From Saccharolobus solfataricus (GTDB taxonomy: Archaea > Thermoproteota > Thermoprotei_A > Sulfolobales > Sulfolobaceae), in assembly GCF_900079115.1 (NCBI RefSeq), contig NZ_LT549890.1:720001-752000 (forward strand): a DNA stretch of 32,000 nucleotides, in the 5' to 3' direction. Positions within the stretch are counted from its first letter, which is position 1; every line of letters begins with the position of its first letter. The position numbers and the translations under genes were made by a program. This document shows, piece after piece, positions 10,606 through 32,000 of the stretch. The notes under the pieces were generated by a model, which worked only from the letters and a program-made list of their open reading frames with translations, searched no databases and was not told where the DNA came from.

Positions 10606-11153
10606 AGAGTGTGTCTAACAATTTTATTCACCTTGTTGTATAAAGTGAAGAAAGCCTTAATACACCTCATTATTAAAGCTTTGTGTGGGAAGTGTTTACC
10701 AATTTGCAAGCCTTAACTTCAAACTCCTAAACACATGTTCTACCAAGTTCACAGAATGTCTAATGTTTTAAGCCCAAAGCAAAGAGTGCATTATACCATG
10801 TCGTGAAGTATTTTACCAGTCAAGCTTAATCCCTCAAAGTCTAATCCTAGTCTAAGACCACAAATACCGTGATTAAATCCATCAAAACCCAATAAACTGA
10901 GTTATTAACTACCCTAATTCTCATCAACAGCATAGGGTAAGGGTACTCGCCCAACTTCCTCCACAGTACTCCTACGCGAAGTGATACCTCGACCCTCCTC
11001 AACAAGCTGATAAAGCTCTTGTAACTTCATCCCTAGTACAAGGGGAAATGTTTAAAGCAAGGTGAGGCGTTCCAACTTGCTTCTCATATTTCCCCTTATA
11101 TTACCACCTCACCATCCTACTAAAATTTTATACAAAAATTGTTGGACACATTC
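10606..11153 (+). mobile_element. Non-autonomous MITE-like element, copy A (~548 bp)
   Basis: Collinear over its full length, at high identity by eye, with the reverse complement of 25928..26474. The termini are inverted: AGAGTGTGTCTAACA at the left and TGTTGGACACATTC at the right. No ORF of 60 aa or more on either strand. No target-site duplication recognisable. Confidence 0.8.
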
Positions 11154-21973: not shown

Positions 21974-23356
21974 ATGCCCTCCTCTGGTCAACTTTATGGG
22001 GATGAGGAGCGGGAGCTAACTCCTACTCCCGCAATACCGGAGGAGGGTGTCTACGAAGTTAAATACTCAAATCGAAGAACCAATGTAGTTCGTCTTCTTC
22101 CAAATGGTTTTCAAGAGAGGAAGTTGAGGAGGTTAGCTAATCTCTCTGCAAAACTCTTCAACGAAGTTAACTTCGAAAGGAGGCAACAATTCTTTCACGA
22201 AGGGAAAGTAAACATTGAGGAAACATATAAAAAATATTATGAGAAGTATAAGGTCATACTGGGCGTTAATGCTCAAGCTGTTCTCAATAAGAATAATGAA
22301 GCGTGGTCATCCTTCTTCTCCTTGTTAAAACTGAAGAAGGAGGGAAAACTACCACCACACATGAACCACGTTTCTCCACCCGGATATTGGAAGGACAGAG
22401 AAGCAGGGAAAAGAAAGCAAATACTAGTTATTAGACAGGACCGTTACAAGGTAGATGCTGAAAACCACAAATTAATCCTCAAGGATTTCGACATGGAGAT
22501 AGACTTCATTGGTAGACTAAAATGGTATGGTAAACAAGGTAGACTAGAAATAATTTTTGACGAAACCAGAAACGCTTGGTATGCGCACATACCAATTGAA
22601 GTAGGTGTTGAGGAAACAAAGGCTGGAAAGAAGAGTAAGCACGTCGTCAAGGGTGAGAGAAAGTCCATCCAGATTTCCAAACCAAAGGGAAACAAAGTAG
22701 CTTCAATCGATCTAGGCATCAACGTAATAGCTAGCGTAGTAGTTAACGATGGCACCTGGTTGTTGTATAAGGGTGTTAGAACAAAGGAGGACTACTTCTA
22801 CTTCCAAAAGAGAATTGCAGAAGTGCAATCGTTAGCTGACAGAACCAGAAACATTGGTGAATATGATGCGTACCTAGAATTGTTGAGGGAAAAGAGGAGG
22901 TTGTTTAAGAAACTAACTAGGAGGCTCACTCATCTATATCGTAACTTAGCTTCCCACCTTATTGAAACACTCTACGAACTAGGAGTGTCAACAATTTATC
23001 TAGGTTACCCATTCAATATCGTGCAAGAAAAAGGCAATAAGTTTACAGTGAACATGTGGTCTTATCGTAAGTTAATGGAATCCATTGAATTGAAAGCACA
23101 AGAATATGGTATGAAGGTGTTTGAGGTTGTTGAGTATAATACGTCCAAGTACTGTGCTTATCATGATGTGGAAGTAAAGAGGAACCCAAGAGGTGTTATC
23201 AACTGTCCTTTAGGTCATAAACTTCACAGCGATTTGAATGGTGCGTTAAACATTCTAAAGAAGGCATTAGGAGTAATCGTTAACGCAGTGAAAAAACCAT
23301 TATCCTTCATTGTGGATCATAACCGAGTAGCACCCATAAAGGGGTGTAACCCTTAA
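21974..23356 (+). CDS. tnpB: TnpB (OrfB) RNA-guided nuclease-like protein of IS200/IS605
   Basis: 460 aa. VASIDLGINVIA is the RuvC-I Asp. A C/H-rich finger follows, CAYHDVEVKRNPRGVINCPLGHKLH, then SDLNGALNILK, the RuvC-III Asp (D-x-N-A-A-x-N type). I could not place the middle acidic residue with confidence. A BRE/TATA box aaagctatttaaac lies about 28 nt upstream of the ATG. Confidence 0.85.
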   Translation: MPSSGQLYGDEERELTPTPAIPEEGVYEVKYSNRRTNVVRLLPNGFQERKLRRLANLSAKLFNEVNFERRQQFFHEGKVNIEETYKKYYEKYKVILGVNAQAVLNKNNEAWSSFFSLLKLKKEGKLPPHMNHVSPPGYWKDREAGKRKQILVIRQDRYKVDAENHKLILKDFDMEIDFIGRLKWYGKQGRLEIIFDETRNAWYAHIPIEVGVEETKAGKKSKHVVKGERKSIQISKPKGNKVASIDLGINVIASVVVNDGTWLLYKGVRTKEDYFYFQKRIAEVQSLADRTRNIGEYDAYLELLREKRRLFKKLTRRLTHLYRNLASHLIETLYELGVSTIYLGYPFNIVQEKGNKFTVNMWSYRKLMESIELKAQEYGMKVFEVVEYNTSKYCAYHDVEVKRNPRGVINCPLGHKLHSDLNGALNILKKALGVIVNAVKKPLSFIVDHNRVAPIKGCNP

Positions 23357-23369
23357 GACCTCGGGGAAC

Positions 23370-23388
23370 CCTCGCCCTTTAGGCGAGG
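23370..23388 (+). other. Right-end subterminal hairpin of the IS200/IS605 element
   Basis: cctcgcc-cttta-ggcgagg: a 7-bp perfect stem, 14 nt after the tnpB stop. It is followed by AG and then by the decayed IS110 copy. Confidence 0.6.
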
Positions 23389-23390
23389 AG

Positions 23391-24483
23391 CTTCCGGTAT
23401 AAAAACTTTTAGCCAAAAATTGAGCATAGTGCACACTACTTATGCAAACAAAAGCCCTCGTCATCACTCGTTAGCATTAAATGGCTTATTATAATACAGC
23501 AAGACCCAAGTAATAACAACCTAATACATGCAACAATCAACTTCTTACCCTTTAACCTACCCTTATGCCCCTCATAAAAACACTTAATCACCGGATTAAC
23601 CTTGATAACAGTCAAAACTGCAAGATAGAAAACCCTCCTCAACCCTCCTTGAGACACCTCAAAATACAACACTCAACAGAATCAAGACCACAATAAGCCA
23701 CAAACTTCCTCTTATCATCAAAACGCCTAACATCACCTACCCTCGCCAAAATTATCAAACCCAGCACCTTCCTAAAGATCAAACTATCCCTAGGAACAAC
23801 ATCCTCAAGCCTCTTCTCAACCTCCCTCTTCCTAGCCTCAAGCCTCTCCAACTCATCCAAAAGAAACTTAACCTCAGACAAGATAATATTATCCCCACCC
23901 TCCAATACTTCACTCAAATTCTTCCTAGACAAGCTATCACTATAACCCAAGAGGATTAAGTCCCCAACCTTTTCTTAACCCTAACAATGACGATAAAATC
24001 CCATTGACTCGTCAACTCCCTAGCATCACTTAACGTAAACTCACATATTAACAACTAGTTCAGCGAGTTTTTTAGCATCATTCTTGTCACTCTTCTTACC
24101 CCTAAAATCCTTGAACTTCTTGATTACCAAGGGATTAATAACCCTCACCTCATACTTGGCAAGGTTAACGTGGTAAACTCCGGTACTCTTAATACCTACT
24201 TTACAACCTCTCGGCATCACTTCTTCAAAACCTTGCTTATCGTTAGGAAACTCGTAGAATTTACCTTGAAAATATACTATTAGTTTATCTTTTGATATAT
24301 TTATCCCTGCAACTGGGGTCTTCATGTATCCTTATGTTTTATTCGGGCTTTTTGTCCAACTTCCAGTCTGAATTTGGAGGTTGGCTAAGCTTTAAGTCGA
24401 GCTTTAAGCTCAAGGATGGACTACACTCCAGTCAGATCTGTATTACTCAGATCTGACCAATATGTTTTATATAAGGAAGTCAG
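23391..24483 (-). mobile_element. Decayed IS110-family element (copy of 28851..30036), ~1.09 kb, transposase broken into three or more fragments
   Basis: ORFs 24041..24325, 23639..23950 and 23436..23672 are colinear with the intact 316-aa transposase at 29011..29961. They lack CLMNE and the TIPGIGKT helix-hairpin-helix and carry frameshifts. The non-coding ends also match: 24330..24483 against 28851..29010, and 23391..23460 against 29965..30034. Confidence 0.85.
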
Positions 24484-25927: not shown

Positions 25928-26474
25928 GAGTGTGTCCAACTATTTTTGTTTTTAGTAGGGCGGTGAGGTGATAATATAAGAGGATAATATGAGAAGTAAG
26001 TTGGAACGCCTCACCTTGCTTTAAACATTTCCCCTCGTATTAGGGATGAGGTTATAAGAGCGTTATCAGCTTGTTGAAGAGGGTCGAGGCATTATTTCAC
26101 GTAGGCGTACTGTGGAGGAAGTTGGGCGATTACACTTCGCCCCTCACCCTAAGCTGTTGATGAGAATTAGGGTAGTCAATAACTCAGTTTATTGGTTTTG
26201 ATGGATTTAATCACGGTAGTTGCGGTCTGAGACTAGGATTAGACGTTATACTTCTCTTTGATGGATTAAGTTTGAGGAGAATGGTAAAATACTTCACGAC
26301 GTGGTATAATGTACTCTAGCTCTTGTGTAAAGCGTTAGACATTCGGTGAACTTGGTAACAAGTATTCAGAAGTCGTTAAGGCTAAACACTTCCCACACAA
26401 CGCTTTAATAATGAGGTGGATTAAGCTTTCTTCACATTATACAACAAGGTGAATAAAATTGTTGGACACACTCT
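25928..26474 (-). mobile_element. Non-autonomous MITE-like element, copy B (~547 bp), inverted relative to copy A
   Basis: Its reverse complement aligns end to end with 10606..11153. The termini are GAGTGTGTCCAAC and GTTGGACACACTC(T). No ORF of 60 aa or more. It starts about 17 bp from the TATA box of the exonuclease gene. Confidence 0.8.
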
Positions 26475-27633: not shown

Positions 27634-28178
27634 TCATAAAAAGCATAAGAATTTTGTTTAAGTTTTCCTATCCTTATACTTTAGACTTAAGGGACATGAT
27701 TAGAATCCTCAAGGACTTAAGCTACGTTATCTCTAGTAATTTACCATTAACTCCTCCAGGGTCTATGATATTAGGAAGTGTAACTGCATTAAAAGATGAT
27801 TTAATAGTAGAATTCAATAACATTACTGGTACTATAAGTTTCTTTATTCAATCCCTAGATAAAATAGACTTAGTTGAGGAAGACTTTAGCAGGATTGTTG
27901 GTAATTTAAACTTGGGCAAGATAGATTACATAGAATTATCATTAGAAATGATATTAAATGGAAAATTAAATTTAAATATAAACATGCTAGGAGGAGAAGT
28001 TGTAGGTCTGGAGGTATCGTCAGAGAGGAAGAACGTTAGAATCAACTCTTACATGGCAATGGCTAACTCCTATTCCGTGCTAATTACTTATAAATTAAAC
28101 GAAATTAAAGATCTAGATAAAGTCACTGAAGAAATAAAAAGAGATATTCAAGAACTTGAGAATAAAGGATTAAGATAA
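27630..28178 (+). CDS. Hypothetical protein, no family recognised; translationally coupled to the HTH gene
   Basis: 182 aa. Its TTG start overlaps the upstream TGA (TTGA at 27630..27633). It has no TM segments and no motif I can name, and its C-terminus is charged and coiled-coil-like (KVTEEIKRDIQELENKG). Confidence 0.5.
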   Translation: MIIKSIRILFKFSYPYTLDLRDMIRILKDLSYVISSNLPLTPPGSMILGSVTALKDDLIVEFNNITGTISFFIQSLDKIDLVEEDFSRIVGNLNLGKIDYIELSLEMILNGKLNLNINMLGGEVVGLEVSSERKNVRINSYMAMANSYSVLITYKLNEIKDLDKVTEEIKRDIQELENKGLR

Positions 28179-28404
28179 CTTATAAGATACTACGTCTACT
28201 CTTCCTAACGAGATAGTTTATCACAACTGAAGTAAGATCCATTACTTACTTCTTGCCCAAGTCTCGCAAATGACCCGACTGAGCTCTAAAAGAACTGTTA
28301 CATTAAATCTCTTAGACGCTATACTCCCTGCTACTGCAGTTAAGCTCATAAGTTACTACTAAAAGTCGGCAAAGCTTATTAGCTAGCGATAGAAATCTAT
28401 CTTT

Positions 28405-28809
28405 ATGAATGAATATATTGCCAGATATGTTGTATCTAAGGATCATAGAATAATCGGGGTGATAAATACTAGGTACACGGCAAATAACGACGATGAGAGT
28501 ATTAAAATTGCTAAATCCGTTTGTGAGAAGTTAGGTGAAGAAGACATTGAAGAACTAATAATAGGAAAGGTAATAGGTACAGTGAGCGTAGACGTAATAG
28601 GTAACTTATTAGGAAAGTCCGATGATGACAAATTGCTCGGAACCATAGCTGGTGCAATAGTAGGCACATTAGTTGGTCACGCTATAGATTCTACAATAAC
28701 TAAAGTAATATACTCCAAAAAGTATCCTTGTATCAAGCCTAGGCCTTTTGAAGATATTGTTAATTATGTTGACCTCGAAAGATTAGAAGAGATAGTTAAT
28801 GAACGTTGA
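28405..28809 (+). CDS. Small protein with two glycine-zipper segments
   Basis: 134 aa. IIGKVIGTVSVDVIGNLLG and LLGTIAGAIVGTLVGHAI (GxxxGxxxGxxxG) lie between a soluble N-terminal ~50 aa and a charged C-terminus. A BRE/TATA box aaagcttattagc is centred about 28 nt upstream of the ATG. Confidence 0.55.
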   Translation: MNEYIARYVVSKDHRIIGVINTRYTANNDDESIKIAKSVCEKLGEEDIEELIIGKVIGTVSVDVIGNLLGKSDDDKLLGTIAGAIVGTLVGHAIDSTITKVIYSKKYPCIKPRPFEDIVNYVDLERLEEIVNER

Positions 28810-28850
28810 CGAGCTTATCAATTTATGTAATAGTTACAGTCTGACTTCCT

Positions 28851-29010
28851 TATATAAAACATATTAGTCAGATCTGAGTAATACAGATCTGACTGGGGTG
28901 TAGGCCGTTGACTCCCTTGAGCTTAAAGCTCGACTGGGAGCTTGGCCAACCTCCAAATTCGGACCGGAAGTTGGGCAAAAAGCCCGAATAAAACATAAGG
29001 GTGAATACAC
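28851..29010 (+). ncRNA. Candidate bridge-RNA-coding left end of the IS110 element
   Basis: This 160-nt non-coding leader has several hairpins: gtcagatctg-agtaata-cagatctgac, gagct-taa-agctc and gggc-aaaaa-gccc. Two 8-nt segments, GGGAGCTT (28936..28943) and ACCGGAAG (28963..28970), match the element's right junction ACCGGAAGCTCCC (30027..30039) in antisense and sense. The RNA itself is inferred, not observed. Confidence 0.4.
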
Positions 29011-29961
29011 ATGGAGGCCCCAGTTGCAGGGATAGATGTATCAAAAGATAAACTAATAGTATATTTTCAAGGTAAATTCTACGAATTTCCTAACGATAAG
29101 CAAGGTTTTGAGGAAGTGAAGAAAGTCCTGCCAAGAGGTTGTAAAGTAGGTATTGAGAGTACCGGAGTTTACCACGTTAACCTTGCCAAGTGCTTGATGA
29201 ATGAGTATGAGGTGAGGGTTATTAATCCCTTGGTAATCAAGAAGTTCAAGGATTTTAGGGGTAAGAAGAGTGACAAGAATGATGCTAAAAAACTCGCTGA
29301 ACTAGTTGTTAATATGGGTAGTGAGTTTACGTTAAGTGATGCTAGGGAGTTGACGAGTCAATGGGATTTTATCGTTAAGAGTATTGTTAGGGTTAAGAAC
29401 AGGTTGAGGAGGGACTTAATCCTCTTGGGTTATAGTGATAGCTTGTCTAGGAAGAATTTGAGTGAAGTATTGGAGGGTGGGGATAATATTATCTTGTCTG
29501 AGGTTAAGTTTCTTTTGGATGAGTTGGAGAGGCTTGAGGCTAGGAAGAGGGAGGTTGAGAAGAGGCTTGAGGATGTTGTTCCTAGGGATAGTTTGATCTT
29601 TACTATACCGGGTATTGGGAAGACGCTGGGTTTGATAATTTTGGCGAGGGTAGGTGATGTTAGGCGTTTTGATGATAAGAGGAAGTTTGTGGCTTATTGT
29701 GGTCTTGATCCTGTTGTTGAGTCCAGTGGGGGGAGTGTTGTGTCGCGAGGTATCTCAAGGAGGGGTGATGCTGTTTTGAGGAGGGCTTTCTATCTTGCAG
29801 CTTTGACTGCTATCAAGGTTAATCCGGTGATCAAGCGTTTTTATGAGGAGCATAAGGGTAGGTTAAAGGGTAAGAAGTTGATTGTTGCATGTGCTAGGAA
29901 GTTAGCTGTTATTACTTGGGCTGTGCTGTATTATAATAAGCCCTTTGATGCTAGTGAGTAA
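29011..29961 (+). CDS. IS110-family DEDD transposase/recombinase
   Basis: 316 aa. The N-terminal RuvC-like DEDD motifs are AGIDVSKDKL, GIESTGVYH and KSDKNDA. The C-terminal domain has the helix-hairpin-helix TIPGIGKT and SSGGSVVSRGISRRGDAVLRRAFY. Confidence 0.9.
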   Translation: MEAPVAGIDVSKDKLIVYFQGKFYEFPNDKQGFEEVKKVLPRGCKVGIESTGVYHVNLAKCLMNEYEVRVINPLVIKKFKDFRGKKSDKNDAKKLAELVVNMGSEFTLSDARELTSQWDFIVKSIVRVKNRLRRDLILLGYSDSLSRKNLSEVLEGGDNIILSEVKFLLDELERLEARKREVEKRLEDVVPRDSLIFTIPGIGKTLGLIILARVGDVRRFDDKRKFVAYCGLDPVVESSGGSVVSRGISRRGDAVLRRAFYLAALTAIKVNPVIKRFYEEHKGRLKGKKLIVACARKLAVITWAVLYYNKPFDASE

Positions 29962-30256
29962 AGCAGGTTTCATCACTTGCGTAAGTAGTGTGGACTATGC
30001 TCGATTTTTCATGGAAAGGTTTTTATACCGGAAGCTCCCCGCCCTAAACGGTAGACCCAAAATCATATTAGAAAAAATATTTCTGGTGGGATAATATCGA
30101 TTCATGATAGATAAAGCAATTTATATGAGTATTAAGAATTCAGTTGAAGAAAGGTTTAAGGTGAGGGAGATGTGGTATTACCACGTGAGTAAGTGAGATG
30201 GTAACACCAGTACTCCCTCACCGAACATTCAACAAATAGGATATAAATTACTTTCC

Positions 30257-30346
30257 ATGCTGAACTTCAAGGGAAAGAAAGGGGAAGAGGTGGCGAGAAC
30301 CCTCATCTCAGCGTGTTTATGGAACGATTCGGTGGAAAGCAAGTCG
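30257..30346 (+). pseudogene. Possible 5' piece of a gene interrupted by the IS5-family element
   Basis: ATG 30257 gives MLNFKGKKGEEVARTLISACLWNDSVESKS and runs straight into the IS terminus at 30347. The link to the ORF after the IS is unproven because the frames differ by 2 nt and no target duplication is visible. Confidence 0.3.
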
Positions 30347-31634
30347 AGAGAGTGTCCCAAGCGCAAATAATTGAATAAATATAGTATGATAGAAAAATAA
30401 TTTTATAATTAATTAAGAATAAAATATAATTATATCTTTCAGTATAACGAGAGATTAAGCTTATATTGTAATGGAAAATAATCAAGTATAGAGAAAAACA
30501 GAATTTCCAACATAGTCCACACTACCTTGATCAACTCTCGCGGTACAAGTTAGTGGGCGAGTTGACTCTCCGGAACACGCGATAACACAGAAGTGTAGAT
30601 GTAGGAGTTGTAAATCAACGCGATAACGTAGACAAAGAACTCGACCATACCCTTTTCAGTAGCGTAAGGCCTCCAATACCTCCTCAAGAAGATCCCAAAG
30701 AACTCCACATACCTCCTGAAACTAGAGAAACCTATCAACCAGGTCGAGGACTTCCCCACGAAGCCCCTATCCACTACCTTATAACCGCTGCGAGAGAAGC
30801 CAACCTTATTGTCCGGAAAATTGGCCAGTTCCACTTGAATCTCGTGAACTATCATTGTTGGCGACATGAGGTTGAAGACCTTGAAGCCGAAGTAACTCCT
30901 GTTCCTCTTCTTTGTAAACTCTCCCTTGAACCTCCTCCTCGCTTTGCACTTAATGTAAAAGAAGAGCGTGTTAGCCGCCTCCCTGTACTTCCTCTGCCTT
31001 AGGTCTAGCTCAAACTTCTTCTTCAATGTTTCCTTGTTCCTCTTCCCGAAGGGTACCTCGATTAGGAAGGAATCCACGATCCACAGCTTTCCAACCTTTC
31101 CGTATAACGCACTGCTAGGTAAGTAGTCGGCAAGTCTACTCATCTTCCCCTCCAACTCCTTGGCGTACTCCTTGAACAGAGTCTTTACCTCTCCCCTAAA
31201 TTTCTTTGCCCTCCTATGGATCTCCGACTTAGACTTGTACTCGCCTAGGAACCACCTTACCACCACGTCTGACTCGTAGTAGCTCCGCACGTCCCTGTAG
31301 GAGCACGTCCACACAATCATTACTATTAACGCTCTCAATATGAAGAGGTCAGAGAGACGCGACAGCACTTCAGACGTGATCAGCATGTAGTTCATTTTCA
31401 CAAGTGTTTTATGCCTTGCTGATAAATGTTCATAGGGAACCGGGCCGTTGTAGTATTCTATCCAATGCTTCATGTGAATCGGTACTACATCGTCCCGGTT
31501 CCCTTTAAGTATTACGCGACTTTTTGCTTCAAGCGAAAATTCAAAATTTCTCAGTAATTCACGATATCTTTTGAATTATTATCTATAAACCTTTACATAG
31601 ATTTATTCAATTATTTGCACTTGGGACACTCTCT
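30347..31634 (-). mobile_element. IS5-family insertion sequence, 1288 bp, with 34-bp terminal inverted repeats (ISC1290-like by size; name unverified)
   Basis: The left end AGAGAGTGTCCCAAGCGCAAATAATTGAATAAAT (30347..30380) matches the reverse complement of the right end AGAGAGTGTCCCAAGTGCAAATAATTGAATAAAT (31601..31634) at 33 of 34 positions. It holds a single transposase ORF. Confidence 0.85.
30550..31473 (-). CDS. DDE transposase, IS5-family type
   Basis: 307 aa. The candidate DDE residues lie in WIVDSFLIEV, YKVVDRGFVGKS and SFRRYVEFFGIFLRRYWRPY. The last resembles the Y-x-x-R-x-x-x-E-x-x-F-x-x-L-K-R block of IS5/IS4-type enzymes. Confidence 0.75.
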   Translation of the reverse strand: MKHWIEYYNGPVPYEHLSARHKTLVKMNYMLITSEVLSRLSDLFILRALIVMIVWTCSYRDVRSYYESDVVVRWFLGEYKSKSEIHRRAKKFRGEVKTLFKEYAKELEGKMSRLADYLPSSALYGKVGKLWIVDSFLIEVPFGKRNKETLKKKFELDLRQRKYREAANTLFFYIKCKARRRFKGEFTKKRNRSYFGFKVFNLMSPTMIVHEIQVELANFPDNKVGFSRSGYKVVDRGFVGKSSTWLIGFSSFRRYVEFFGIFLRRYWRPYATEKGMVEFFVYVIALIYNSYIYTSVLSRVPESQLAH

Positions 31635-31636
31635 TG

Positions 31637-32000
31637 AAAGGACAGATAGAACCTGGGAGGGCGATCCATTCAAAAAGTTCGACTTCTATATTCCTAAATA
31701 TAATTTATATTTAGACGTTACTGGTACATCATTCACCAAATCAGAGAGTATAAAAAGGGCGCATATGCTGCAATTGAGAGGAGCAATAATCGCTATTCTG
31801 GGCATAAAAGTTTCGGTGGCAGAAATACTTGCTGCGAAAGGCTATAGAACTGCTTTTGCTAATGTTGCAGAGAGAGAAGGTGAGATAAGGTTTATGCCAT
31901 ATTCTAGACTGAAGGTCTTAGAAAAGAATGGAAGGGCCATTATCGCCCAACCAGAAGAAATAGAGTTTGCGAAAGGCGAAAGAACGTATATACTCACAAG
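31637..32000 (+). CDS. Hypothetical protein, partial (continues beyond the right window edge); possible PD-(D/E)xK-like motif
   Basis: Absent from the ORF track because it is open at the edge. It reads ERTDRTWEGDPFKKFDFYIPKYNLYLDVTGTSFTKSESIKRAHMLQLRGAIIAILGIKVSVAEILAAKGYRTAFANVAEREGEIRFMPYSRLKVLEKNGRAIIAQPEEIEFAKGERTYILT. FDFYIP...LYLDVTGTSFTK loosely fits a D...(D/E)-x-K nuclease core. It begins directly at the IS boundary and has no start codon of its own. Confidence 0.45.

Follow-up and report, generated by a model that had tools for sequence, protein, structure and literature searches.

To our knowledge, bridge RNAs have been characterized only in bacterial elements. In IS621 of Escherichia coli, a bridge RNA loop is paired with 8–9 nt of the bottom DNA strand on its 5′ side and with 4–7 nt of the top strand, core dinucleotide included, on its 3′ side, and handshake guides, placed 3′ of the core guide, show complementarity to the non-cognate DNA (PMC11208160; PMC11208158). 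In IS1111 elements, the seekRNA is located in the right end, downstream of the gene, and sub-terminal inverted repeats of 7–17 bp are present (Siddiquee et al. 2024, PMC11187229). In this work, we analyzed a 32,000-nt stretch of the Saccharolobus solfataricus genome (NZ_LT549890.1, positions 720,001–752,000; the window), which carries an insertion sequence (IS) of the ISC1190 type, belonging to the IS110 family. As judged from sequence comparisons, its left end, which forms the leader of the recombinase gene, very likely belongs, as an archaeal member, to the known bridge RNA recombination systems. Some 25 independent copies were compared, together with two Sulfolobales IS110 groups that are more distant (referred to below as groups II and III), and these comparisons established the boundaries of the element, a conserved fold, the covariation of guides with flanks and with element ends, and the catalytic residues of the recombinase.

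Several features are shared with IS621. The core is CT, and the putative RNA would come from the long left end, which precedes the gene for a DEDD/Ser recombinase. There are two internal loops, each with a basal stem and a distal hairpin and with a 3′ side antisense to the core and the right half; the first loop is variable and would read the target, and the second one is conserved and would read the donor junction (right end (RE)-core-left end (LE)). The strand logic, the guide lengths, the position of handshake guides directly 3′ of the core guides, and the targets in repeated sequences are also shared. ISC1190 differs from IS621 in its archaeal, hyperthermophilic host, in having neither an Rfam match nor a call in the published covariance-model survey, in its symmetric target loop (12 × 12 nt), and in handshake candidates of three bases and not two. 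Moreover, its left-donor core guide is UU (wobble) and not CU, its right-donor guide has only 3–5 nt plus the core, its core-guide register varies by 1 nt between guide classes, its candidate promoters are archaeal TATA boxes, and its last stem abuts the start codon and overlaps a Shine-Dalgarno (SD)-like motif. The recombinases are about 25–30% identical (estimated from the alignment).

As in the case of seekRNAs, the putative RNA comes from a non-coding end of an IS with a DEDD transposase and contains short stretches matching the target and the ends. However, it is located in the left end (160 nt, as compared with 73 nt of the right end), and therefore ISC1190 falls outside the IS1111/seekRNA type; its donor is bordered by no more than a very short inverted motif.

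Probable target-binding loop and flanking DNA

Within group-I leaders, alignment columns 58–65 are the most variable (1.0 bit), followed by columns 82–88 (0.83 bit), and these correspond to the two target-guide stretches of the first loop (loop 1; coordinates of all features are given in Table 1). Elsewhere, variability amounts to 0.07–0.24 bit in the hairpins, the basal stem, and the core and handshake guides, 0.4–0.5 bit in the linker and the 3′ tail, and 0–0.12 bit in both strands of the donor loop.

The 5′ stretch of loop 1 repeats, in the same sense, the last 8–9 bases of the left flank and then CT, i.e., the left target half (LT) and the core. The matches are as follows: UUGACUUC-CU for the left flank CTGACTTC-CT (class a), UGACGCCU-CU for TGACGCCT-CT (copy L018, also given as GUGACGCCU-CU versus CTGACGCCT-CT), UUGAUUUCC-CU for TTATTTCC-CT (L019), UUGAUCUCC-UU for TTGATCTCC-CT (P2-type copy), GACACUAU-UU for GACACTAT-CT (L111), and ACUCAAC-CU for ACCCAAT-CT (Acidianus). 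When the pairing of leaders with flanks was reshuffled 20,000 times, the 115 matches observed at 152 positions were never reached (permuted mean 77, standard deviation 6), and the same was true with one representative per guide class (69/96 versus 45.5; 0/20,000).

The 3′ stretch of loop 1 corresponds, as a reverse complement, to the bases with which the right flank begins, i.e., the right target half (RT), followed by AG, and is antisense to the core and RT. In L029, it reads CGAGG for CCTCG, so that the predicted and the observed RT are the same; in L025, it reads UUGUU for AATAA (AACAA being predicted), in Acidianus CGAA for TTCG, and in most other copies CGGGG or UGGGG for CCCC(G/A). Here, 53 of the 70 positions matched, as compared with 39.9 after permutation, a value attained in 11 of the 20,000 reshufflings. 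Both sides of the loop therefore covary with the flanks, as the original prediction, made from the window sequence alone, had proposed to check. It should be stressed that two copies (L110 and L111) encoding an identical recombinase (P0017) carry different guides (GTTGACTTCCTT/GACGGGGAGCTT versus GTGACACTATTT/GGTGTGGAGCTT), and their left flanks differ correspondingly.

In the window copy, the 5′ side of the loop agrees with CTGACTTC-CT at 6 of the 8 LT positions and at both core positions. The end of its 3′ side, GGGAGCUU (28936–28943), is composed of GGG of the right-target guide, AG of the core guide, and CUU, the last of which complements the final three bases of the right end (AAG) and occupies the position of the handshake guide of IS621. 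The reverse complement of this side reads AAG-CT-CCCAG, as compared with AAG-CT-CCCCG at the junction, and the target encoded by the guides of the window copy is CTGACTCC-CT-CCCAG.

In the more distant groups, the group-III copy L036 carries UCAACAAC-CU for the flank TCAACAAC-CT and AUGGAGA-AG for the right flank TCTCCAA. Good target-loop matches were also found in group II (L039, L044, L047, and L051); the register there is off by up to 2–3 nt and some copies are unmatched, and this group was not relied on in the target-loop analysis.

Probable donor-binding loop and element ends

The second loop matches the element itself, its 5′ side being the sense of the right end and the core and its 3′ side being antisense to the core and the left-end start. 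The left-donor guide of the window copy, ACCGGAAG, is identical to the last 8 nt of the right end (30027–30034) and is followed by the wobble-compatible core guide UU, while AUA-AG on the 3′ side is the reverse complement of CT-TAT. The next three bases, GGU, could pair with the last LT bases (by G:C and G:T in the window copy). The handshake guides of both loops, located 3′ of the core guides, are complementary to the non-cognate and not to the cognate DNA, although this complementarity is only partial for the donor loop.

These guides change together with the ends. In group I, the ends and the core read ACCGGAAG/CT/TAT. In Acidianus, the left end starts with CAT, the right-donor guide is AUG-AG, and the donor-loop handshake guide is GUU, facing the left target ...AAT. 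In group II (...ACTGAACG/CC/TATAT...), the left-donor guide is ACUGAAC(A)-UU and the right-donor guide is AUAUA-GG, and the first loop ends with GG-CGU, the reverse complement of ACG-CC, i.e., of the right end and the core of this very group. In group III (...ACCGGAATG/CT/TATAT...), the left-donor guide is ACCGGAGG-UU (ACCGGAGGUU against the right end ACCGGAATG), and the right-donor guide is AUAUA-AG. Donor, core, and handshake guides hence follow the ends of each group, with few independent between-group events; since both the donor strands and the ends are invariant within group I, the test of the donor guides rests on distant elements.

The original prediction had described two 8-mers of the leader, GGGAGCTT (28936–28943) and ACCGGAAG (28963–28970), which tile the right junction ACCGGAAGCTCCC (30027–30039), and a script re-found all of these positions. 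GGGAGCTT is the reverse complement of AAGCTCCC (30032–30039), ACCGGAAG equals 30027–30034, and the two overlap at AAG, within ACCGGAAG-CT-CCC. They tile this junction because it is composed of the left donor half, the core, and the right target half, which makes it a recombination product. The proposal that the leader is a bridge RNA with loops matching the junction gained support from the fold and from covariation, but the 8-mers are not two halves of one loop, as they lie in different loops. Two guides had been overlooked, namely the left-target guide (28908–28917) and the right-donor guide (AUA-AG-GGU, 28995–29002).

Conserved secondary structure of the leader

For 18 distinct group-I leaders, RNAalifold applied without hints gave a 12-bp hairpin, a GGCC(G)/(U)GGCC stem with an internal loop and a small distal hairpin, an AUUC/GAGU stem with a second loop, and a GGGC/GCCC hairpin. 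In an explicit fold model of these leaders, 98.7% of cells are paired, and none of 500 shuffles reached the observed values. The covariance model of group I found full-length matches upstream of recombinases with only 40–57% identity (E = 1e-9 to 5e-4, the E-values being rough) and recovered the structure in groups II and III. Across the groups, 96.4% of cells are paired (25–49% in slid controls) and double changes occur in 26 of the 33 helix pairs, although the alignment was fitted to the model structure, so these pairing counts are inflated. The 12 × 12 geometry of the target loop is present also in groups II and III, and one pair of the donor-loop basal stem occurs as U:G, C:G, and U:A, the equivalent in group II being AUC/GAU alongside GUC/GAC. 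As U:G pairs work only on the plus strand, they point to an RNA and not to a DNA palindrome. The non-coding left end is thus predicted, with the backing of covariation, to form a structured RNA with two internal loops.

In a minimum-free-energy fold of the window copy alone, GGGAG is paired with CUCCC in a helix. This helix lacks conservation, most of its pairs being open in 5 to 10 of the 18 leaders, the RNAalifold consensus has an internal loop at this place, and folds at 75 °C show an open loop in L018, in Acidianus, and in one of the group-III leaders. The family-level model places both 8-mers in internal loops; their location in helices had been named as an outcome that would contradict the original prediction.

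In the family consensus, the donor loop is closed by the distal GAAU/GAGU (29003–29006), which leaves a 17-nt 3′ side with the right-donor guide. The closing stem proposed originally for ACCGGAAG, AUUC with the proximal GAAU, fits group I (98.6% paired), but it turns the loop into a bulge without a 3′ strand and is not the solution obtained with RNAalifold or for group II, and for these reasons the distal stem is preferred. A K-turn or C/D-box-like motif at the 12-nt loops was also considered and rejected upon inspection, as there is no GA beside the stem in the 3′ strand and the motif in the 5′ strand is not conserved.

The element, its recombinase, and its insertion sites

The 316-aa protein of the window copy matches P0001, "Transposase ISC1190", with 100% identity. 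The gene of P0001 lies at about 729 kb of the S. solfataricus P2 genome (AE006641.1), and, by sequence, the window element is ISC1190 of this strain. The catalogued ISC1190 (ISfinder; UniRef/NCBI "Transposase ISC1190") is the same element, the entry covering the transposase and the ends and no RNA; a second ISC1190 subtype (84% aa identity, L005–L014) is the ISfinder-type sequence. NCBIfam NF033542, "IS110 family RNA-guided transposase", matches the open reading frame (ORF) with 226 bits (cut-off 140). Residues 6–315 align to the IS621 structure (8wt6; E = 3e-24), and the protein is alignable end to end with the IS621 and ISCro4 structures (E ~1e-24). It has an N-terminal RuvC-like DEDD domain and a C-terminal Tnp domain with the catalytic serine; the residues D9, E49, D88, D91, and S239 are conserved and are invariant in 14 relatives. 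The layout is that of the IS110 group, with a left end of 160 nt (28851–29010), the leader length given originally, a right end of 73 nt (29962–30034), and no long terminal inverted repeats.

Additional copies were taken from the P2 genome, from Acidianus manzaensis, from a metagenome scan with an alignment, and from four further genomes. A scan of genome contigs with the single protein yielded at least four loci, the metagenome scan being far richer. In all copies, (T/C)ATATAAAAC... is found on the left, ...ATACCGGAAG on the right, and CT borders each end, whereas the 8–10 bases beyond CT vary between groups of copies. The left-end start differs in Acidianus (CATATAAA) and in groups II and III (TATATAGG and TATATAAG).

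The same core CT is present on both sides of all group-I copies. When the two flanks of L031 are joined via one CT, they can be aligned colinearly (92/115 identical) with a repeated element that is uninterrupted in L083; at the core position, this empty site reads TT. An uninterrupted sequence in L062 resembles the targets of L018 and of the window copies. Since other copies and empty sites show that the flanking bases belong to the target, the element extends from 28851 to 30034, its core is CT, and CTGACTTC and CCCCGCC are the target halves. The left boundary proposed earlier thereby stands, as at least 20 independent copies cease to resemble one another upstream of some 10 target-like bases and one of the targets has an uninterrupted relative. 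An alternative delimitation based on the two window copies alone, with the start at CTGACTTCC (28841) and the end at CGCC (30043), was rejected, because the other guide classes and the empty sites revealed these bases as conserved target.

An empty site of the window copy, sought via the upstream neighbor protein, was not found among the contigs listed. Nine of the ten contigs listed with this neighbor gene break about 60 nt after it, roughly where the IS begins, and the tenth (L096, a complete chromosome) carries the IS there. A search of the window and of the collected loci for the class-a target and for the target encoded by the guides of the window copy gave nothing beyond chance.

The natural group-I targets are found within at least two families of repeated sequences, as is usual for the IS110 family. 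These families, ...GCTAATGACGCTC-CT-CCCCAGCTCGATTGAGGGCTTAATGGGACTG... and ...CTGACTT(C/T)-CT-CCCCGCCCTGGAAGGGTCGAGGGTTCCCC..., with insertions at CT, were seen in the right flanks of L004, L022, L030–L034, and L038, and in L018, L083, and the window (23291–23388); neither had a match in Rfam.

Table 1. Features of the ISC1190-type element and its surroundings (positions within the window).
Feature	Position	Strand	Remarks
ISC1190-type IS110-family element	28851–30034	+	1184 bp without core; boundaries by copy comparison
Left target half (LT), CTGACTTC	28841–28848	+	Target DNA outside the IS; common to many independent copies that diverge further upstream
Left core dinucleotide, CT	28849–28850	+	Directly before (T/C)ATATAAAAC in all group-I copies
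Left-end start = right donor half (RD), TATATAAA	28851–28858	+	Also TATA-box-like; invariant in group I
5′ hairpin	28865–28895	+	12-bp stem 28865–28876/28884–28895, loop 28877–28883; compensatory double changes in 12/13 pairs across groups
Target-binding loop module	28903–28947	+	Basal stem GGCC/GGCC (28903–28906/28944–28947), 12 × 12 internal loop, distal hairpin; RNAalifold and pair counts
Target loop, 5′ side, GUUGACUCCCUU	28907–28918	+	Left-target guide 28908–28915; core guide CU 28916–28917
Target-loop distal hairpin, GAGCU-UAA-AGCUC	28919–28931	+	GC/GU/AU compensation at the second pair; double changes in 4/5 pairs across groups
Target loop, 3′ side, GACUGGGAGCUU	28932–28943	+	Right-target guide 28934–28938; core guide AG 28939–28940; handshake guide CUU 28941–28943
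Donor-binding loop module	28957–29006	+	Basal stem AUUC/GAAU (28957–28960/29003–29006), internal loop, distal hairpin; RNAalifold
Donor loop, 5′ side, GGACCGGAAGUU	28961–28972	+	Left-donor guide ACCGGAAG 28963–28970; core guide UU 28971–28972
Donor-loop distal hairpin, GGGC-AAAAA-GCCC	28973–28985	+	Double changes in 3/4 pairs: GGGC/GCCC, GUGA/UCAC, GUGG/CCAC, GUCA/UGAC
Donor loop, 3′ side	28986–29002	+	Right-donor guide AUA 28995–28997; core guide AG 28998–28999; handshake guide GGU 29000–29002
DEDD/Ser recombinase (IS110 transposase), 316 aa	29011–29961	+	Pfam PF01548 and PF02371
Right end, 73 nt	29962–30034	+	Ends conserved in all copies
TATA-like TTTTTATA in right end	30020–30027	+	In each of the three groups, such a box lies 7–8 nt from the right end
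Left donor half (LD), ACCGGAAG	30027–30034	+	Last 8 nt of the right end
Right core dinucleotide, CT	30035–30036	+	Copy comparison
Right target half (RT), CCCCGCC	30037–30043	+	In the repeated target family CTGACTT(C/T)-CT-C(C/A)CCGCCCT..., uninterrupted in L062
Decayed second copy	23391–24473	−	Flanking CT cores 24474–24475 and 23389–23390; broken ORF

Proposed mechanism and alternative explanations

Taking these results together, we are confident, short of certainty, that the left end of ISC1190 (about 28865–29006) encodes a bridge RNA working like that of IS621. By analogy with IS621, this RNA would be made, would be bound by the recombinase, and would direct the reaction. The 316-aa recombinase and the RNA would bring the excised circle and the target into synapsis, the second loop pairing with the RE-CT-LE junction of the circle, expected to read ...TTTTTATACCGGAAG-CT-TATATAAAACAT..., and the first loop with the target LT-CT-RT. 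The donor sequence would be ACCGGAAG-CT-TATATAAAAC, and the target CTGACTTC-CT-CCCCG would suit class-a guides. Strand exchange at CT would give LT-CT-[IS]-CT-RT with no other duplication, and the exchanged top strands would be stabilized by CUU and GGU, the triplets 3′ of the two core guides, each of which complements the respective other DNA partner.

The least improbable alternative is that the structure has no role other than that of a cis-acting 5′ leader in the transposase mRNA, controlling its translation or stability, e.g., by sequestering GGUGA, and that the protein itself picks the target. The last stem indeed ends 4 nt before the ATG and overlaps GGUGA, and no terminator separates the RNA from the ORF. 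Against this, the only hypervariable stretches of the leader copy DNA lying outside the element, on both sides and in opposite senses; identical proteins with different loops are found at correspondingly different sites; and the constant loop strands match the two ends of the element and co-vary with them across groups. A role restricted to the mRNA leader appears improbable to us, and the leader role and the bridge-RNA role are not mutually exclusive.

It is still less probable that the matches act at the DNA level, the internal copies of ends and flanks being protein-binding or synapsis sites, or products of gene conversion or flank capture, with no RNA involved. The same identities would then appear in the DNA, and sub-terminal repeats are common in IS elements; however, the stems flanking the guides keep pairing through compensation and through G:U pairs, which are A·C mismatches on the other strand and point to a single-stranded plus-strand RNA, several guide-DNA pairs work only as RNA-DNA wobble (UU for CT, G opposite T), and the protein family has been shown to need such an RNA. 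A chance match of the two 8-mers, suspected because they were found post hoc in one copy, has a negligible probability: in agreement with what had been claimed, 40,000 first-order-Markov leaders of 160 nt gave P = 0.013 for the sense 8-mer, 0.008 for the antisense one, and 1e-4 for both (uncorrected for the post-hoc choice of the site), a pattern of this kind, made up of other sequences, is seen again in about 25 copies and in three groups, and the permutation tests refute this explanation.

Besides the inflated cross-group pair counts, several observations weigh against the bridge-RNA interpretation. The guides of the window copy mismatch their own site at 28914 and 28935, where the class-a consensus would match perfectly, and its two target-loop strands can pair with each other. 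Exceptions to the guide-flank correspondence are the left guide of L016, the right flank of L018, and the junction of L022/L034; the core-guide register shifts by 1 nt between guide classes (loop positions 10–11 versus 11–12) and is ambiguous in group II; and the right-donor guide is short (3 nt plus the core). Rfam 15 gave no match within 28000–31000 (E ≤ 10), the field "Detected Bridge RNA End" is empty for ISC1190 in Supplementary Table 5 of Durrant et al. (PMC11208160), as it is for ISC1229 and ISSto4, and the literature searched reports neither an RNA from the ISC1190 leader nor an archaeal bridge RNA (the transposon-derived RNA-257 of the Sulfolobus small-RNA literature comes from ISC1904, not ISC1190). 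Furthermore, no terminator is evident in the stretch from the last stem (29006) to the ATG (29011), and the SD-like GGUGA (29001–29005), located 5 nt before the ATG, overlaps both the handshake guide of the donor loop and the 3′ strand of the basal stem of this loop. Accordingly, the RNA may be a processed mRNA leader, and the structure could also, or instead, act as a leader of this kind; many metagenome copies start with TTG in place of ATG. It should be noted that the element fell short only of recognition by existing bridge-RNA models, which is a matter of detection and not of mechanism, and that all mechanistic features that could be examined were found.

With respect to expression of the putative bridge RNA, TATA-like boxes are present in the right ends of all three groups (TTTTTATA, TTTATTA, and TTTAAATA). 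In the circle, such a box would place the transcription start about 25 nt downstream, at approximately the first base of the 5′ hairpin, and the full start would be available only when the ends are joined, whereas the TATA-like left-end start would begin transcription inside this hairpin. One may speculate, with considerable doubt, that the full RNA is made only from the excised circle, the right-end TATA being the only box placed for a start at the hairpin, that it doubles as the recombinase mRNA leader, and that the donor-loop stem hides the SD-like GGUGA. If this were true, a single archaeal transcript working at 75–80 °C would tie together guide production, translation, and the state of excision, and a naturally thermostable, programmable recombinase system for archaea would be at hand.

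In the original survey of the family, no bridge RNA was assigned to ISC1190 and its Sulfolobus relatives. The two-loop logic of target, donor, core, and handshake guides in three Sulfolobales groups would extend the mechanism to hyperthermophilic archaea; it is an extension of a known mechanism, archaeal and previously uncalled, as expected once the protein family was known to be RNA-guided, and not a new mechanism. It would explain the preference of ISC1190-type elements for CT inside two repeated sequence families, would give explicit and testable guide-target rules, and would offer a candidate heat-stable programmable recombinase for Sulfolobus genetics and biotechnology. In addition, archaeal bridge-RNA structures may be used to test the proposed descent of Nop5/C/D-box RNA guidance from IS110 systems.

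Decayed and rearranged copies and neighboring repeats

The covariance model also matched the decayed copy of the window (24317–24473, minus strand; 125 bits). This copy has a 6-nt deletion in the left-target guide, GGGAG is changed to TAAAG, and ACCGGAAG to ACTGGAAG; the two segments matching the junction carry 3 and 1 substitutions (TAAAGCTT and ACTGGAAG), and not 4 and 2 as counted before. The same 6-nt deletion and the GGGAG-to-TAAAG change were found at a different locus, in L002 (1354–2357) of a Sulfolobaceae metagenome-assembled genome, both copies being inserted at CTGACTTC-CT. The shared defects suggest a lineage with defective guides moved by RNA supplied in trans.

Other copies are rearranged. 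L058 and L059, from two metagenomes, are chimeras of a group-I left end, RNA, and N-terminal half with a group-II C-terminal half and right end (...TTACTGAACG-CC), and their donor guide mismatches their own right end, since this end comes from group II. In L025 (1493–1648, minus strand), and also in L026 and L064, an internal-deletion derivative of group II is located in opposite orientation inside a group-I recombinase gene; it retains all of the left end that codes for the putative RNA, joined to the final codons and the right end. L023 (606–751) and L108 (S. caldissimus) share a deletion from the distal hairpin of the first loop to the hairpin of the second loop (GCCC...GCCC), which removes the right-target and left-donor guides, while the 316-aa ORF of L108 is intact. 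In L040 and L095, the right end and the core are directly followed by a left-end-like start (ACTGAACG-CC-TATATAGGTTTT and ACCGGAATG-CT-TATATAAGGG, respectively), and by sequence these right ends look like remnants of circle-type or tandem junctions.

Directly downstream of ISC1190, the window contains an IS-like unit (30344–31637) with 40-nt terminal inverted repeats (30344–30383/31598–31637, 93%) and a 307-aa ORF (30550–31473, minus strand) that has no Pfam or NCBIfam match. Furthermore, an inverted repeat of about 480 bp, 91–96% identical, occupies positions 10606–11090 and 25986–26474 of the window, 15 kb apart.

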